A stretch of 64,000 bases of DNA from Eubacteriales bacterium (GCA_045590715.1 JAZNRO010000124.1:960-64959), one strand, 5' to 3'. Counted from the stretch's first letter, positions 26,109 to 34,441 are shown. Notes: generated by a model from the sequence alone, not told the origin. Translations and numbers: made by a program.

Positions 26109-26231
26109 ATGAAATCAGCTGACGCTGATGAAATCTTCGATTTTGCCTCAGATGAAATTAAGTCCACCCATCTTCCGTCAAGGCGGATTTCATCCAACAG
26201 AGTTGGATTTCATCGTCGGAGACGATTTCAC
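26109..26231. repeat. Nested inverted-repeat element (3 x GATGAAAT then 3 x ATTTCATC)
   Basis: Forward copies at 26109, 26127 and 26151. Reverse copies at 26186, 26206 and 26224. They pair outermost to outermost. Confidence 0.6.
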
Positions 26232-26255
26232 CCACCCGCAAGGGTGGATTTAGTT

Positions 26256-26289
26256 GAAAAACCGACAAGTCGAAACTTGTCGGTTTTTC
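26256..26289. terminator. Bidirectional terminator abutting the tRNA 3' end
   Basis: AAAA-ACCGACAAGT-CGAA-ACTTGTCGGT-TTTTT. Confidence 0.75.
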
Positions 26290-26366
26290 TGGCAGGGATG
26301 GCGAGATTCGAACTCACGAATGCAGGAGACAAAGTCCTGTGCCTTAACCGGCTTGGCGACATCCCT
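26290..26366 (-). tRNA. tRNA-Gln(UUG)-like, with U at position 37
   Basis: Manual cloverleaf: acceptor AGGGATG/CATCCCT, anticodon arm CAGGA-CTTTGTC-TCCTG, T arm GTGAG-TTCGAAT-CTCGC, encoded CCA. 77 nt. Confidence 0.75.
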
Positions 26367-27984: not shown

Positions 27985-28392
27985 TTATCTCTTGGAGAAC
28001 TGGGAAGCACGACGAGCTGCTTTGAGACCGTACTTCTTTCTTTCCTTCATTCTGGGGTCACGAGTGAGGAATCCAGCCTTCTTCAGAGCGGGACGGAAGC
28101 TTTCAGCATCTGCCTGCAGAAGAGCTCTGGAAATACCGTGACGGATCGCACCAGCCTGGCCGGAAACACCGCCGCCTACAACGTTGCAAACAATGTCGAA
28201 CTTGCCCATATTACCGGTAAGTTCCAGGGGCTGACGAACGATGAGTTTCAGGGTATCAAGGCCGAAGTAATCATCAATATCTCTCTTATTGATGGTGATG
28301 GCGCCGGTACCGGGATAAATACGAACACGGGCGATAGATTTCTTTCTTCTGCCGGTGCCGTAGAAATAAGGTTTCGCACTAGTGTAATTCAT
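27985..28392 (-). CDS. rpsI: 30S ribosomal protein S9
   Basis: 135 aa. [12 protein letters not shown] and the C-terminal [18 protein letters not shown]. Confidence 0.95.
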
Positions 28393-28414: not shown

Positions 28415-28843
28415 TTAGAACTCAAGGCTAACAGGCTGCTGAGCAGCGTGCTGATGAGCTTCACCTGCATATACTTTCAAGCGGGTAAGGCTCTTTCTGC
28501 CGATGGTGTTCTTGGGAAGCATACCCTTCACTGCAAGGAAGATTGCTTTCTCGGGGTTCTTGGTCATCAGTTCTTTGTAACCGATTTCCTTCAGACCGCC
28601 GATGTAACCGGTGTGATATCTGTATTTTTTCTGTTCCAACTTGTTGCCGGTGAGAATAGCCTTATCAGCATTGATTACAATTACGTACTCACCACAGTCA
28701 ACGTGGGGGGTGAACTCAGGACGGTTCTTACCGCGGAGAATGGTAGCAGCAGCGGCTGCAACCTTTCCGAGAGGTTTGCCCTGGGCGTCGAGAACGTACC
28801 ATTTGCGTTCAATGGTTTCGGCTTTTGCCATAAAAGTGGACAT
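28415..28843 (-). CDS. rplM: 50S ribosomal protein L13
   Basis: 142 aa. [37 protein letters not shown]. Confidence 0.95.
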
Positions 28844-28877
28844 TGCATTTCCTCCGAATTTCTTAATTTACTTGCCT

Positions 28878-28906
28878 ATTATATAAGAGGAAAAATGCTT
28901 TGTCAA
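28878..28906 (-). promoter_or_regulatory. Sigma-A-like promoter of rplM-rpsI
   Basis: Minus strand TTGACA, 17 nt spacer, TATAAT. Confidence 0.6.
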
Positions 28907-29077
28907 TAGCTTTTTTGCAAAAAAATATTTTTTTATATTGTTATCTCTTTTTTTCTCCCGTTTTCTCTTAAAAGCTCGTTTTTTCTAAATTTAAGACTAA
29001 TTATTTTTAACAATTTAAAGACGGTATTTTTCATAGGTTTGCGGGAGACCTATGACGTAGAAATAAGAACATATAAC

Positions 29078-29171
29078 ATTTTGTAGGGGCGAAATGTGTT
29101 CGCCCGTCAAGGTTTGTGCAGATTTTGCGGACGAACACAGTTCGCCCCTACGGATTGATTGTTTTGCAGGC
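29078..29171. repeat. REP doublet, composite copy A (forward unit 29083-29105, reverse unit 29129-29151)
   Basis: GTAGGGGCGAAATGTGTTCGCCC ... GGACGAACACAGTTCGCCCCTAC plus a conserved tail. About 90% identical to 32736-32829. Confidence 0.8.
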
Positions 29172-29182
29172 TGTCGGAGATG

Positions 29183-29225
29183 AAAAAACAAAAAAATAGC
29201 TTGCTCCGAAGAGCAAGCTATTTTG
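29183..29225 (-). terminator. Terminator of the large-protein/59-aa-ORF unit
   Basis: Minus strand ATAGCTTGCTC-TTCG-GAGCAAGCTAT followed by TTTTTTTGTTTTTT. Confidence 0.75.
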
Positions 29226-29236
29226 TTTTGGTTTAA

Positions 29237-29416
29237 TTACCAGAGGGAAACGCCGCCGCTGATAACAGAGGAATCGGTAGTACCGGTGGTACCGGAACCG
29301 AGAACTGCATCAGCATTGCCGATCATTCCTGCATTGATTACAACGGAACCAGCAAGAACGTCTTCCTGCATGAAAGCGATCATTTCCAGAGCGGGTGCTT
29401 CATAAACTTTTTTCAT
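29237..29416 (-). CDS. 59-aa peptide ORF (not in ORF track)
   Basis: GGGAGGTG lies 7 nt upstream of the ATG, and the ATG is 15 nt after the upstream stop. Translation: MKKVYEAPALEMIAFMQEDVLAGSVVINAGMIGNADAVLGSGTTGTTDSSVISGGVSLW. Confidence 0.6.
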   Translation of the reverse strand: MKKVYEAPALEMIAFMQEDVLAGSVVINAGMIGNADAVLGSGTTGTTDSSVISGGVSLW

Positions 29417-29431
29417 TATTCTGCACCTCCC

Positions 29432-32401
29432 TTATGCGTTTGCTGCAACAGCAGCTGCCTGGATGTAGAAGAGGAATGCTTCAGCAGCTTCATCGGTTTC
29501 AGCAGCCATCTGTGCAAGAGTTGCAACGGAGCCGCGGAATTCGAAGTAAGCACCGCCTTCGTAGCCGTCCTTAACCTTCAGAGCGAAGTTTTCTTCCATA
29601 TTCTGAGCAGCGAAGTACAGGTCGATAGTGATAGTCTGAGCATCGGTATCTACAACAGCCTTATCAGCCCAATCCATAGCGTTGAAGGTAACCATCAGAT
29701 CGGTGGGCATAGTAGAGAGAGTCAGAGTGAATCTAACGCCGGTAACGTTGGTCATGATGAAGTCAGCCTTCAGACCGGTAACGTCTGCCTGCTTTTCACC
29801 CTTTTCCAGGGAGAAGTCATATTCTTTAGCTTCAGCTTCGTAAGCGGAGGTGAAGCCTTCTTCATTTGCACCGCAAAGGTTTACAAGAGCCTGAGCCCAG
29901 GTCTGCCATGCACCGTCCAGCTGTTCTGCACCGAGAGCAGCGATGGTAGCAACAGACAGTTCAACGTCGGAAGCGAGAGAGCCGCCGAAGGTGAACGCGG
30001 TGTTGAAGTTGGGATAACCAACTGCGTAGGTAACTACGGAGTAGTAGGTTTCGTCGTAATCAGCGAGACCTTCTTCAGGATCTACAACAGAAGTACCGTT
30101 CATAAGGATGTCGTAGGTAAAGCCATCGATAGCATTAACTTCTTCTTTCAAGAACAGGAAGCGAATACCAAGAGCGGTATTGTTGTCGTCCATGATAACA
30201 GTAGCAGAAGCAGGAGCTACGGTGGTAGGAGCGGGAACGTAACCGTCGGTTACGTAGATGTCGCCGTTTTCTTCAACAACCTTACCAACGTTGGTCTCAT
30301 CGGTACCAGCCTGAGTGGTGGTAACAGTGAGGTTGCCAGCTGCGCCTACGAAGAGGATGCTGTAGGTGTCGGTATCAGCCCAAGAACCGGTGTTACGAAC
30401 AACAACGGAACCGGTAGCATTATTTACGGTGATCTTAGCCTGATAGAAGTCAATACGACCGCCGTTCATAGAGAAGCTGTCGATTTCGAGACCATCAGTG
30501 TTGGAACCGAACTTAACGATATCGGTAGCTTTGGTGCTCACAACTTCAAAGGTAGAAGAAGCAACAGTGGTATCAGCCTGCTTCTTGGTGATCATTTTTT
30601 CGAAATAACCGTCAGAAACGATGGTCTTAACGTCGCCTGCTACAGCGCCGGTCTTATTTGCATTTTCTGCATAGAAGAGACCTTTGAACTGAGGATAGTT
30701 TGCGCCGGCAAGAGCATTTTCAGAGGTGCCTTCTTCATAGTCTGCTGCCTGACCGGTAATACCACAAATATTGTTGGTAATATTGATAGCCTCAGTGCTC
30801 TTGTTCTGTACGCCACCGTGGAAGGTGGACATCAGGATACCTGCAGTGATATTGTTTACGATATCAGCGTAGGTGTAGTAGCGAGATCCGAAGAACGCGC
30901 CGTTAATGGTACCGCCATTGATGTTGTTGGTAGCGGGTTTTGCATCTTCGCCGCTTACAGAACGGTTCTCCCATACGGAAGCACCGGAGTAATTATTGAT
31001 GCTAGCGTTGCCTTCCAAAGTGAAGGTGTAGTTACCAGTTACGTAACCGTTAAGGCTAGAAGCTCTGGTAGCCATAACATCACCGGTAACAACTGCGTCA
31101 CCGCCAACGGTGATAGAGAAGTCGCCGATGAGGAATGCATCGCAGAAGCCCTGAACGGTGCCGATTACGTGACCGCCGAGAACGTTGATCTCGCAATCGC
31201 CATAGAAGAATTCAGCGGTAGTGCCGCCGCCATTGTTATCTGCATAGATGTTAGCAACGTTACCGGAGTAAACGGTAACTTCTGCCTGACCAACGGGCTT
31301 ACCGAGAACCTGGAACATATTGATGCTATTAAAATCAGCAGTATCGGAATTTTCATTACCGTTATCGATGATGATCTTGGCATCAACTTCAAAAGGTCTA
31401 ACGGTAGCCTGTCTGTTTGCAGCCTCGGTCAGATAGTCAGCATTACCGTAAACGATTACGTCTTCGATTTCATTTGCGGGATCGCCGCCTCTCTGCATCA
31501 AGCCCTGGAAGGCTGCGATGTTTTCAGCGGTGAGATCAGAACCGGAAGCAGTAATGTCATCAGACTTACCGTAAGTACCGGAAGGAGTTGCAGCAACGCC
31601 GGCACAGGTAATAAAGGTGTTTGCAGTAGTTACGCTGGTGCCTTTACCGAAGATGAAACCGGTGTCAACAAAGCCGTCGCCGTCTTTGTCGTTAGCGGTG
31701 ATCTTTTCGGGCTGAGCTACGTTGCTAGCCTGCCAGTTGTAGAAAGTATCTCCGCCATAAGCGTCAGCATTGAAATAAAGTTTCTTGCCTTCTGCGGGAG
31801 TGGGAAGATTTACGTCATGGAAGGTAACCAGACCGGAACCTGCCTGGATGTAAGCGTCTTCACCAGAAGTAACGGAGAAGGTCACATTGGTGAAGAAGTA
31901 ATCATTTGCAAATTCTAAACGATCGGTCTTGTTGATCTTGAGGGTAGAAGCTTTGTCCGCTTCAATACCTTCAATGACGATGGGGAGTTTGGTGTTGTCT
32001 TCTCTGAAGATAGTCATCGCACCGAAAGCGGTTTTGCCACTCTTACCGGTGTTTTTACCGTCTGAAAAGGCAGTCAGAGAGTCCTTGAATTTTACAACGA
32101 GGACAGATCCTGCTTCGTAGGCCTGGGTTCTAACAGCTGCATCAGTCAATACAGCGTAAAGATTCCAAGCGCTCTTCAGAACGGTGTCTTCTGAAGTCAA
32201 GCCTGCTTCATCAGCGGTAGCACCGCCGCCCAAAGCATAGTAGATTTTGGTCGCACCTTCTCTGGGGTCGGAGTAAGAATACTCGTACTCAGCGGGTGCT
32301 TCAGTTTCTTCTGCTGCAACGCCGGTAGCCAAGGCACCTGCTACACAGGAGAACAGCATCAAAACTGCGAGAAATACAGAAAGAAGTTTTGTAATTCTCA
32401 T
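29432..32401 (-). CDS. Large secreted protein (989 aa), beta-helix-like, unknown family
   Basis: ATG at 32401 with AAAGGAGG upstream. Sec signal MRITKLLSVFLAVLMLFSCVAGALA. G/T/A/N/V-rich. No anchor motif recognised. The track ORF adds 52 implausible N-terminal residues. Confidence 0.8.
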   Translation of the reverse strand: MRITKLLSVFLAVLMLFSCVAGALATGVAAEETEAPAEYEYSYSDPREGATKIYYALGGGATADEAGLTSEDTVLKSAWNLYAVLTDAAVRTQAYEAGSVLVVKFKDSLTAFSDGKNTGKSGKTAFGAMTIFREDNTKLPIVIEGIEADKASTLKINKTDRLEFANDYFFTNVTFSVTSGEDAYIQAGSGLVTFHDVNLPTPAEGKKLYFNADAYGGDTFYNWQASNVAQPEKITANDKDGDGFVDTGFIFGKGTSVTTANTFITCAGVAATPSGTYGKSDDITASGSDLTAENIAAFQGLMQRGGDPANEIEDVIVYGNADYLTEAANRQATVRPFEVDAKIIIDNGNENSDTADFNSINMFQVLGKPVGQAEVTVYSGNVANIYADNNGGGTTAEFFYGDCEINVLGGHVIGTVQGFCDAFLIGDFSITVGGDAVVTGDVMATRASSLNGYVTGNYTFTLEGNASINNYSGASVWENRSVSGEDAKPATNNINGGTINGAFFGSRYYTYADIVNNITAGILMSTFHGGVQNKSTEAINITNNICGITGQAADYEEGTSENALAGANYPQFKGLFYAENANKTGAVAGDVKTIVSDGYFEKMITKKQADTTVASSTFEVVSTKATDIVKFGSNTDGLEIDSFSMNGGRIDFYQAKITVNNATGSVVVRNTGSWADTDTYSILFVGAAGNLTVTTTQAGTDETNVGKVVEENGDIYVTDGYVPAPTTVAPASATVIMDDNNTALGIRFLFLKEEVNAIDGFTYDILMNGTSVVDPEEGLADYDETYYSVVTYAVGYPNFNTAFTFGGSLASDVELSVATIAALGAEQLDGAWQTWAQALVNLCGANEEGFTSAYEAEAKEYDFSLEKGEKQADVTGLKADFIMTNVTGVRFTLTLSTMPTDLMVTFNAMDWADKAVVDTDAQTITIDLYFAAQNMEENFALKVKDGYEGGAYFEFRGSVATLAQMAAETDEAAEAFLFYIQAAAVAANA

Positions 32402-32501
32402 TTTGGGTTTTCCTCCTTTTAAATTTCTACCCTTTGGGTAGATTAATATTGTTACGTAAGTGGTAGGCTGCAAAAGGAAACAATACCACCTATGCAAAGA
32501 T

Positions 32502-32530
32502 ATTCTATCAAAGAATAATCTTTTCGTCAA
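32502..32530 (-). promoter_or_regulatory. Sigma-A-like promoter of the large secreted protein gene
   Basis: Minus strand TTGACG, 17 nt spacer, TAGAAT. The 5' UTR is about 95 nt and contains two hairpins. Confidence 0.55.
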
Positions 32531-32735
32531 CCTTTTCTCATTATTTAATTTTAACAAAAATAAAGTTCACAATTTGTTCAGCTTTGCTTTTCGTCCCAAG
32601 ATCTAGCAAAAAGGTTTAAATTCCGGCATTTTTTGCTATATGTGGAAATTCCTTCCTTTTATTATATATAGAGAAAATATGAGTTTTGCATTGAATTTGC
32701 GGGCCGTCGGGGATGTGCACACAAGCACACATAGT

Positions 32736-32925
32736 ATTTTGTAGGGGCAAACTGTGTTCGCCCGCCAGGGTTTGTACAGATTTCACGGGCGAACACAGTT
32801 CGCCCCTACGGATTGATTGTTTTACAGGCGAACACAGTTTGTCCGTACGGGTTGTTTGCGTTGCGGGCGAACACAGTTCGCCCCTACAATAGTTTGTTTT
32901 ATGGGTGCACAAAGTTTGTCCGTAC
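32736..32925. repeat. REP array (composite copy B 32736-32829 plus three further units)
   Basis: Units at 32741-32763 (forward), 32787-32809, 32826-32848, 32865-32887 and 32904-32925 (reverse or degenerate). A second palindrome, GTCCGTACGGG, is interleaved. Confidence 0.8.
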
Positions 32926-32969
32926 GGGTATGTGTGAGCAAAATAAAAAAAGACCCCGAGAGGTCTTTT

Positions 32970-33494
32970 TTATTCAACGTATAATTCATCTTCCCGCCAT
33001 TTTATCGGATTGGAATAGATATAATTGCAAATTTTCACATATTCTTCCTCGGAACGGATAACGCGATCATAGAACGAACGTTGAAATACAGATTGGCCTA
33101 TGCTTTTTGTTATTTTCCCTTTGAATTGCTTCACCATCTGCGATACCGTAGGGGCGAACTGTGTTCGCCTGTCATCTATCTTTTCGATTCGCAATACTAA
33201 ATGAATATGATTGGGCATAATCACATAATAATCAATCTTGACATTTTCGTAAACAGTGTTCCATCGCTCTAATTCAGTTTCAACGCAAATGCCAATAGAA
33301 GACAACGGTAAATTTTGCGGGCGAACACAGTTCGCCCCTACATGCACATAATCATATTTTCCAATTTCAAAACCGTTTTTCCACAAAATCGGGCTTTTGG
33401 CTTCGGTACAAATGGTGATGAAATATCTGCCCTCAGAAGAATAATCGTGCTTATCCCAACGAATTTGCTTTCTTATTTTTAAATCTTTATTCAT
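32970..33494 (-). CDS. REP-associated tyrosine transposase (RAYT / IS200-like Y1 HUH protein)
   Basis: 174 aa from MNKDLKIRK. HUH-like MPNHIHLVL and Tyr motif YIYSNPIKW. The ATG overlaps the prmA TGA (ATGA). A REP array lies about 45 bp beyond its stop. Confidence 0.78.
   Translation of the reverse strand: MNKDLKIRKQIRWDKHDYSSEGRYFITICTEAKSPILWKNGFEIGKYDYVHVGANCVRPQNLPLSSIGICVETELERWNTVYENVKIDYYVIMPNHIHLVLRIEKIDDRRTQFAPTVSQMVKQFKGKITKSIGQSVFQRSFYDRVIRSEEEYVKICNYIYSNPIKWREDELYVE
33148..33169. repeat. REP unit inside the RAYT CDS
   Basis: GTAGGGGCGAACTGTGTTCGCC. Read on the minus strand it encodes RRTQFAPT. Confidence 0.75.
33319..33341. repeat. REP unit inside the RAYT CDS (opposite orientation)
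   Basis: GGGCGAACACAGTTCGCCCCTAC. Read on the minus strand it encodes VGANCVRP. Confidence 0.75.
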
Positions 33495-34441
33495 TTCTTT
33501 AAAGTAAGGCAGACCCAGCCGCCGCTGCGGTGAGTATCGGAGAGGAGAAAACCGTTCTTTAATAAAATAGAACGGATCTCCTCTTCCCTTTCTTCCAAAA
33601 TACCGGAAGCAAGAAGGGTGCCGCCCTCTTTCAGAGCCTTGAAAAGATAGGGTGCCATTTCGCCGATGATACCGGCTACGATATTGGCGCAAATGAGATC
33701 AAAGTCCTTGCCCATTTCCTCCCGTTTATCAGAATCGGAAATGATATCGCCACAGATAAAGGCTTTTTCCTCTATCACAATACCGTTTTTCTCAAAATTT
33801 TCCCGGGCGGTGCGTACGGCGGCTTCATCAATATCCACCGAGATACACTCTCCTGCGCCCAGTTTCATAGCGCCGATACCGAGAATACCGGAGCCACAGC
33901 CCATATCCAAAACGCGATCGCCTTTTTTCAGGGAGCGCTCCACTCCCTCCAGGCAAAGGCGGGTAGTATCGTGAGTACCGCTACCGAAAGCGGCGGCAGG
34001 GTCAATATCAATGACGGCTCTATCCCCTACCTCTTTGGCGCTGACCTCTTCCCAGCAAGGCTTGATGAAAAGGCGCTCTCCTACGGGGAAGGGATAAAAG
34101 TACTGTTTCCAGCGGGTATCCCAATCACTATTTTCTACCAGAATGATCTCACCGCTGACATCAGAATAACCCAGGTTTTCGCAAACGCCCAAAAGGAAGG
34201 ATAAGATCTCCTCCGCGCGGGGTCGATCGGAAACGTCAAAATAAAATTTAATTTCCGGCGGGAGATCCTGCTTTTCAAAGAGATCATCCTCAATATAATC
34301 GCAGAACATTTCCCCGGCGGATTCTAACAGATCGGAATGATCCAGGATTTCAAAAGTGTCATACCCCCCTGCAACAAGAAAGGTCGATACAAGATCGACC
34401 TTTTCTTTGGGGAGCTTGATTTTCAGCTCTAAATAATCCAT
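33491..34441 (-). CDS. prmA: Ribosomal protein L11 methyltransferase
   Basis: 316 aa. FGSGTHDTTRLCLE and the SAM motif VLDMGCGSGILGI. Confidence 0.92.
   Translation of the reverse strand: MDYLELKIKLPKEKVDLVSTFLVAGGYDTFEILDHSDLLESAGEMFCDYIEDDLFEKQDLPPEIKFYFDVSDRPRAEEILSFLLGVCENLGYSDVSGEIILVENSDWDTRWKQYFYPFPVGERLFIKPCWEEVSAKEVGDRAVIDIDPAAAFGSGTHDTTRLCLEGVERSLKKGDRVLDMGCGSGILGIGAMKLGAGECISVDIDEAAVRTARENFEKNGIVIEEKAFICGDIISDSDKREEMGKDFDLICANIVAGIIGEMAPYLFKALKEGGTLLASGILEEREEEIRSILLKNGFLLSDTHRSGGWVCLTLKK

Follow-up and report, generated by a model that had tools for sequence, protein, structure and literature searches.

Does a pair of direct repeats around a gene, with a transposase-like gene next to them, mark out a mobile or switchable cassette? 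The question is raised by a stretch of 64,000 nucleotides (nt) from a Eubacteriales bacterium (GCA_045590715.1 JAZNRO010000124.1:960-64959; hereafter the window). Here a single minus-strand transcription unit, encoding a 989-residue protein with a signal-like N-terminus and a 59-residue partner, lies between two direct copies of a doublet of repetitive extragenic palindromes (REPs), next to a gene that we class as a REP-associated tyrosine transposase (RAYT). The first-pass annotation of this DNA had read the unit as a cassette that could be lost by recombination between the repeats, or that was inserted or mobilised with help from the RAYT. By our analysis the arrangement should not count as evidence for a mobile or switchable surface-protein cassette; a pair of REP doublets forming hairpins (REPINs) around a gene near a RAYT is as REP biology predicts. 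The repeats probably belong to a REP/REPIN population served by the single adjacent RAYT, with copy B part of the RAYT-proximal cluster and copy A a later local copy, while the cassette would be older and independent of them and its bracketing incidental. The elements of the locus are the following.

27985-28392: rpsI, in the left flank beside rplM
28415-28843, minus strand: rplM, core gene of the left flank, with its own promoter at 28878-28906 (12/12 consensus match)
29038-29171, plus strand: repeat copy A, a 134-nt unit with a well-conserved 94-nt core at 29078-29171
29083-29151, plus strand: REPIN A, a head-to-head REP dimer made of core (+) 29083-29105, a 23-nt spacer and core (-) 29129-29151, GTAG heads outward
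29193-29224, minus strand: intrinsic terminator of the cassette, with a 14-bp stem and T runs on both strands, conserved in the closest relative (contig L001)
29237-29416, minus strand: 59-residue open reading frame (ORF; MKKVYEAP...GGVSLW), by homology the conserved small partner of the large protein
29432-32401, minus strand: 989-residue protein with a signal-like N-terminus, beta-rich, without known domain, of a rare family
32502-32530, minus strand: sigma-70-like cassette promoter from a consensus scan (TTGACG-17-TAGAAT, extended -10 TG)
32696-32829, plus strand: repeat copy B, with its core at 32736-32829, in which REP (+) 32741-32763 and REP (-) 32787-32809, set apart by a 23-nt spacer, make up REPIN B
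32826-32925, minus strand: three more reverse REP-like units, at 32826-32848 (4 mismatches), 32865-32887 (exact) and 32903-32925 (6 mismatches)
32946-32971, minus strand: intrinsic terminator after the RAYT gene, from a consensus scan
32970-33494, minus strand: RAYT of 174 residues, its ATG overlapping the prmA stop (ATGA)
33491-34441, minus strand: prmA, core gene of the right flank (PrmA, E = 1e-71)

Both repeats are REPINs. Copies A (29078-29171) and B (32736-32829) lie in the same orientation and align without gaps at 85 of 94 positions, which bears out the nine mismatches reported in the first-pass annotation, and the anatomy given there is likewise confirmed: each copy runs from a REP core on the plus strand through a 23-nt spacer to an inverted core on the minus strand, and ends in the tail GGATTGATTGTTTT(G/A)CAGGC. 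The longest perfect run that the two copies share is 34 nt. Within the doublets the core reads GTAGGGGCGAA(A/C)TGTGTTCGCCC on the plus strand before it returns, inverted, after the spacer; it is a 23-nt imperfect palindrome with a GTAG head, an 8-bp stem and a 3-nt loop (GTAG + GGGCGAAC-TGT-GTTCGCCC). One REP hairpin alone folds at -8.1 kcal/mol (z = -6.3). When folded as single-stranded DNA, each doublet becomes a single long hairpin, with energies of -26.7 and -27.2 kcal/mol and a z of about -7.8 against shuffled sequences; the hairpin arms are 92-96% complementary (29083-29151; 32741-32809). Pairs of GTAG-headed palindromes placed head to head across a 20-100-nt spacer, beside a RAYT, are what the literature defines as REPINs or GTAG-REP 'HH dimers' (PMC3337134; PMC3733652). 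Rfam matches on the hairpins, to miRNA-precursor and leader models, were sub-threshold and were taken as chance.

Copy B is not a free-standing doublet, being the opening part of a REP array. Together with the three reverse units it makes up a REP cluster that lies just downstream of the RAYT gene, has a 39-nt period and alternates between two unit variants. This cluster starts 20 nt beyond the RAYT terminator, and REPs flank the gene on this one side, with two more inside it. In a repeat search the similarity of the two copies extends leftward until it spans 134 nt, with 109/134 positions identical between 29038-29171 and 32696-32829; the added 40 nt match at only 24/40 positions. Both ends of this longer similarity fall inside REP units: it starts with TTTGCGGG, as reverse REP units usually do at their 5' end, and the CAGGC at the right end of copy A is the first bases of the next reverse REP unit in array B. 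The 40-nt extension was also considered as a separate element; this was rejected, since it begins with the reverse-REP start and looks like a decayed REP unit. At up to three mismatches the core GTAGGGGCGAACTGTGTTCGCCC occurs seven times in the window against zero expected from shuffles, all within 29083-33341, and neither looser matching nor an nhmmer profile of the 134-nt unit found a REP copy outside that interval in the 64 kb. All REP units of the window therefore sit at most 4.3 kb from the RAYT. The REPIN count for this genome, two doublets and the cluster, covers these 64 kb of one contig.

The ORF adjoining copy B is a RAYT. As a single sequence it scores under curated cutoffs (19.8 against 23 bits for Pfam Y1_Tnp and 62 against 80 for NCBIfam REP_Tyr_transpos). 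It has 3206 homologues, some of them called RayT by their sources, and the sole kind of solved structure matched by the family profile is E. coli TnpAREP (4ER8, E = 8.5e-11). Furthermore, an alignment of 21 homologues shows no variation in the HUH motif (PNHIH) or the tyrosine helix (Y...Y-I-x-x-N-P), and both align to residues 49-125 of 4ER8. In the window (33491-33494), in L144 (9758-9761) and in L146 (5608-5611), the RAYT start codon either overlaps (ATGA) or directly adjoins the stop codon of an unrelated host gene upstream (prmA, a NUDIX gene and an unnamed gene). The RAYT therefore stands last in host operons, where it is probably coupled in translation.

The closest relative separates the cassette from copy A. 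It is represented by two contigs, L001 and L021, from one ENA sample (ERZ27227494), which presumably derive from a single genome. RplM and RpsI are 100% identical to those of the window, MntP 96% and LUD 91% (all on L001), PrmA is 99% identical (L021), and the flanks agree at 93% of nucleotides. L001 covers the C-terminal half of the large gene, and beside rplM it carries this half (53% identical in amino acids, 69% in nucleotides), the small ORF (67%) and the same terminator. The block and the module compared between the loci are these:

29017-29183, plus strand: 167-nt block holding all of copy A; L001 has 10 nt (ATCTTGATAG) instead
29237-32401, minus strand: the two-gene module of the window, with counterparts at L001 3-1654, at L017 10001-12996 and 13938-17626, and in L018-L020

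The block was delimited by aligning window 28835-29245 (minus strand) with L001 1645-1900. Around it the flanks of the two sequences are about 93-100% identical, the adjacent intergenic divergence is ~5%, and the presence of copy A thus differs between close relatives. At the other end of the locus, L021 has a terminator hairpin after the prmA stop, at the position where the RAYT starts in the window, and L022 (PrmA 83% identical) is likewise arranged; these two contigs end 60-74 nt past prmA. The last 74 nt of L021, aligned with the window region upstream of the cassette promoter, gave a score not above that of shuffles. At this locus the closest relative thus has the cassette but neither copy A nor, immediately behind prmA, a RAYT, and therefore the repeats did not bring the cassette in.

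A wider comparison places this difference in context. Scanning species-representative genomes with PrmA yielded 12 ruminant-gut Eubacteriales/Oscillospiraceae metagenome-assembled genomes (MAGs), with PrmA 66-71% identical; 11 of the 12 reach rplM (RplM 94-99% identical) in the order p136-prmA-rplM-rpsI. Seven MAGs have a prmA-rplM gap of 204-281 nt that consists solely of the prmA terminator and then the conserved rplM upstream element and promoter. An empty site carrying a single 94-bp copy, the check suggested in the first-pass annotation, was looked for among the relatives, and these seven gaps hold no REP, RAYT or cassette. An esterase gene occupies the gap of four genomes (L006 10945-12456, L008 1775-3275, L009 2467-3947 and L017 6464-7726), and the gap of one MAG (L004 10945-11508) contains 563 nt of unrelated palindromic 'GTGATATT' repeats. 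Given that it is empty, esterase-bearing or repeat-bearing among relatives, the prmA-rplM gap is an insertion hotspot, and the comparison indicates that its ancestral state was empty. At up to four mismatches, the REP core is absent from 267 kb of 22 related loci. The L001 terminator abuts the rplM upstream element as in the outgroups, and absence of the REPIN would therefore be ancestral; a gain in the window lineage is favoured because the L001 state is outgroup-like and REPs are absent from all relatives.

Homologous modules also occur outside this gap. Those of L017-L020 encode a protein of 943-1173 residues and an ORF of 48-51 residues under their own promoters (TTGACA in L017 and L019); one site lies between rpsI/Fer4 and mntP and another after mntP, and the modules have neither flanking direct repeats nor REPs. 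The cassette interpretation is therefore partly supported. The part describing an accessory module between core genes stands, as seven MAGs lack it, and the part linking repeats and RAYT to its arrival does not, as L001 has the module without copy A. Insertion or mobilisation helped by the adjacent RAYT finds no backing in a relative without a RAYT after prmA or in repeat-free homologous modules. What remains is an accessory cassette in a hotspot, neither delivered nor defined by the repeats.

We propose that the cassette, equipped with its own promoter and terminator, would have entered the variable prmA-rplM gap first and independently, before the RAYT and the REPs. RAYT genes typically have a REP cluster in their flank, and copy B would be the RAYT-proximal end of such a cluster. 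Copy A would be a REPIN with short neighbouring REP pieces, deposited 3.6 kb off between the cassette terminator and the rplM promoter, either through RAYT-mediated single-strand transposition or through REP-to-REP template switching or gene conversion. According to one study, REP clusters reiterate dimers plus pieces of flanking DNA (PMC3733652), which fits a 134-nt unit whose ends lie in REP units. Because the cassette is one uninterrupted transcription unit, the nearest two extragenic sites are its ends, and the bracket would be a by-product of this geometry. We infer this order of events, in which copy A would be one REPIN whose gain is dated by the comparison of two near-identical strains.

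Several points weigh against this proposal. Copies A and B differ at 9/94 positions (~10%), which is above the ~5% intergenic divergence between the window and L001; copy A may therefore derive from another genomic copy, or REPs may evolve fast. The REPIN distribution in this genome is seen on one contig, and the doublet-specific tail (GTTCGCCCCTACGGATTGATTG) had 0 matches in the scan of JGI metagenomes. L001 and L021 stop short of the N-terminal half of the large gene and the region upstream of it, which leaves room for a RAYT or a copy B farther from prmA. Finally, the action of the RAYT on these REPs is a prediction.

The same divergence would suit a history in which the common ancestor of the two strains already carried the RAYT with its REP cluster and the two doublets, and deletions then removed copy A and the RAYT on the L001 branch: with ~10% between the copies and ~5% between the strains, the duplication could predate the split, and REPIN excision is documented in Pseudomonas (PMC3337134). 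However, such a history needs two independent clean losses, one of the 167-nt block and one of the RAYT with the prmA terminator restored, and is less parsimonious. It also has to accommodate the lack of REPs in all 22 related loci and an L001 terminator that abuts the conserved rplM upstream element, as in the outgroups, and we regard it as quite unlikely. Loss of the cassette in part of the population would be another route to variation: RecA-dependent or slipped recombination between the copies would remove the 3.66-kb unit, leave one hybrid copy and generate subpopulations without the secreted protein. The copies are direct repeats with 85/94 identical positions, and their 34-nt identical run makes such a deletion physically possible, about 34 nt being the minimal length for efficient RecA recombination in E. 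coli. The fast evolution of the protein (53% amino-acid identity against 93% nucleotide identity in the flanks) is moreover compatible with selection on an exposed antigen. Conversely, recombination should be very rare between copies that diverge by ten per cent and whose identical runs are short, and deletion would be irreversible and hence no switch. The single-copy product occurs in none of the related contigs, whose empty sites are REP-free, and the repeats are not conserved at the locus, given that the closest relative has the cassette but no left repeat. On/off variation by deletion is thus unlikely.

It is very improbable that the cassette and the two doublets form a composite mobile unit, with the doublets as its ends, that was inserted or moved by the RAYT. 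The RAYT does directly adjoin copy B, both cassette and RAYT are missing from the ancestral prmA-rplM gap, and homologous modules sit at differing positions in relatives. This explanation is nevertheless largely refuted by L001, which together with L021 presents a same-site cassette that lacks copy A and has no RAYT right behind prmA, and the homologous modules elsewhere lack REPs or other flanking repeats. End usage and cargo speak against it too: Y1 HUH transposases such as those of IS200/IS605 use left and right ends that differ from each other and are not simple direct repeats, and no RAYT is known to move cargo genes (PMC3337134).

The incidental bracket that we prefer agrees with the wider distribution of the REPs, which were found in at least 120 metagenome contigs from termite, human and ruminant gut. 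Among the matches listed, 184 of 189 REP cores lie outside RAYT genes and 26 forward/reverse doublets occur, 34-82 nt start to start; the spacers and flanks of these doublets differ from each other and from those of copies A and B. The REP family is dispersed in gut metagenomes without relation to RAYT genes. Doublets scattered in this manner, and a cassette that occurs without copy A in L001, make the bracket look incidental.

REPIN-RAYT systems have reportedly been described by Bertels and Rainey in 2011, by Nunvar in 2010 and by Ton-Hoang in 2012. The window resembles them in having a single nearby Y1 HUH RAYT with an adjoining REP cluster, in the extragenic position of its REPs, and in the spread of the family over many genomes and metagenomes. 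It also shares with the GTAG 'head-head dimers', as set out in Di Nocera 2013 (PMC3733652), the 23-nt GTAG palindrome, the inverted pair, the 20-100-nt spacer and the long hairpin. The host is different: most of the systems described are from proteobacteria, and this one comes from an uncultured gut Clostridia/Oscillospiraceae-like MAG. The locus thereby documents for uncultured gut Clostridia, which the REPIN literature has hardly touched, a GTAG-REP/REPIN-RAYT system. Further differences are the restriction of REPs to one side of the RAYT, the fusion of its start to an upstream core-gene stop, the two in-gene hairpins and the low visible copy number (2 doublets and the cluster in 64 kb).

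Comparison with other repeat systems is equally instructive. Copy B and the three units form a tandem array with 39-nt spacing and two alternating variants, as do the bacterial interspersed mosaic elements (BIMEs) and REP clusters of E. coli, although the array has one forward and four reverse units where BIMEs are strictly alternating Y/Z pairs. An accessory unit between direct repeats beside a transposase gene recalls composite transposons and other direct-repeat cassettes, flanked by insertion sequences (IS) or att sites; unlike those, the repeats here are non-coding and are not conserved with the cassette, and no target-site duplication is visible. The IS200/IS605 elements share a TnpA-related HUH/Y1 enzyme and guide-tetranucleotide hairpins that bracket a segment with an HUH-coding region. 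Those elements, however, carry their hairpins outside tnpA and are multicopy as a whole, whereas here the hairpins are in-frame and translated and the gene appears fixed, operon-embedded and single-copy.

The in-frame hairpins are two REP cores within the RAYT coding sequence:

33148-33170, plus strand: in-gene REP core; the coding strand reads RRTQFAPT
33319-33341, minus strand: in-gene REP core encoding VGANCVRP

These form an inverted pair whose GTAG heads point outward; their starts are 171 nt apart, and they bracket the HUH-coding core. Such in-gene pairs are also present in L143, L144, L146, L147, L037 and L073. Both peptide motifs are nearly invariant across the RAYT family. When compared with E. 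coli TnpAREP by sequence, RRTQFAPT aligns to a shorter, gapped stretch right after the HUH strand, and VGANCVRP falls in additional residues that come after the first strand and before the helix that follows it. The VGANCVRP core is the same at 24/24 nt in five other RAYT genes, with protein identity to the window RAYT of just 49-65%. Third codon positions of the 16 REP codons show an identity of 0.86 over seven genes, as opposed to 0.40 in other codons and 0.46 in codons for invariant amino acids, and variant stems change in both halves (GACC...GGTC in L147; GCGCGC...GCGCG in both copies of L144). This synonymous-site conservation and these compensatory stem changes point to nucleic-acid-level selection on the REP hairpins in the RAYT gene. 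Extragenic heterodimer REPINs with the same AAC/ACC pairing as the in-gene pair were found in metagenomes, and the co-variation of in-gene with extragenic REP variants gives an indirect hint that the RAYT may bind or cleave its cognate REP.

More tentatively, the in-gene pair of this gut-Clostridia RAYT family (at least 3200 proteins) could be a 'REPIN with a long spacer', acting either as a master template for extragenic REPINs through internal deletion or as an autoregulatory site of RAYT binding or cleavage, with copies A and B descended from it; we consider this possible, if somewhat doubtful. In-gene REPs go unmentioned in those REPIN/RAYT papers that were searched by keyword, which describe RAYTs as flanked by REPs or REPINs (PMC3337134; PMC3733652). 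The in-gene REPs bear on the origin of REPINs, which PMC3337134 lists as unresolved, and they suggest autoregulation or template models. As a separate observation, the RAYT homologue P0013 contains a 21-residue tandem duplication ending in the REP-encoded VGANCVRPQN (alignment A2, columns ~66-107), and the end-point of the duplication coincides with the in-gene REP.

Turning to the bracketed unit itself, the description in the first-pass annotation was sound: one minus-strand unit lies between the repeats, its promoter, terminator and both ORFs were reproduced, its 5' untranslated region folds modestly better than shuffles (z = -2.7), and core genes flank it, rplM-rpsI on one side and prmA, with the RAYT, on the other. 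The GC content of the cassette (47-50%) is like that of its flanks, and a compositional sign of recent foreign origin is therefore absent; the RAYT region is lower, at 38.5%. The 989-residue protein begins with a hydrophobic, signal-like N-terminus, and searches of Pfam, NCBIfam and PHROGs for domains or anchors were empty. Its AlphaFold model, moderate in quality (pLDDT 67.6, pTM 0.62), consists mainly of beta structure. Foldseek returned zero matches to this model in the PDB at E <= 1e-3, with a weak, low-TM resemblance to autotransporter beta-helix passengers and nothing stronger. Its description as a 'surface protein' is thus best taken as presumptive. The last ~250 residues (~690-989) also end P0188 (~1690-1946), a 1950-residue GH20/F5_F8_type_C/FIVAR protein, and this common C-terminus suggests an undescribed C-terminal module of extracellular proteins, possibly one for anchoring.

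The large-protein family is very rare, with 5 homologues in a word-indexed set of 5.8 billion sequences and 143 cluster representatives among 1.84 billion in a full hidden Markov model search. The small ORF (48-59 residues; consensus MKKvYe.P..l..F..DVL..S...GNxxL(F/W)) follows every homologous large gene in L001 and L017-L020. Divergence of the two-gene module is far above that of the flanks, as the comparison of the large protein between the window and L001 illustrates. The prmA-rplM hotspot thus hosts a fast-evolving, very rare module that combines a secreted protein of ~1000 residues with a conserved peptide of 50-60 residues.

Two minor features complete the description. An antisense open frame of 366 codons (30818-31918, plus strand) inside the gene for the 989-residue protein finds no backing from homology and probably results from the codon composition of that gene. 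Between recG and mntP, directly downstream of a tRNA gene, lies a Gut-1 RNA (Rfam RF01706, 73 bits against a gathering threshold of 50); the coordinates of this RNA and tRNA pair are 26182-26256 and 26293-26366, both on the minus strand.

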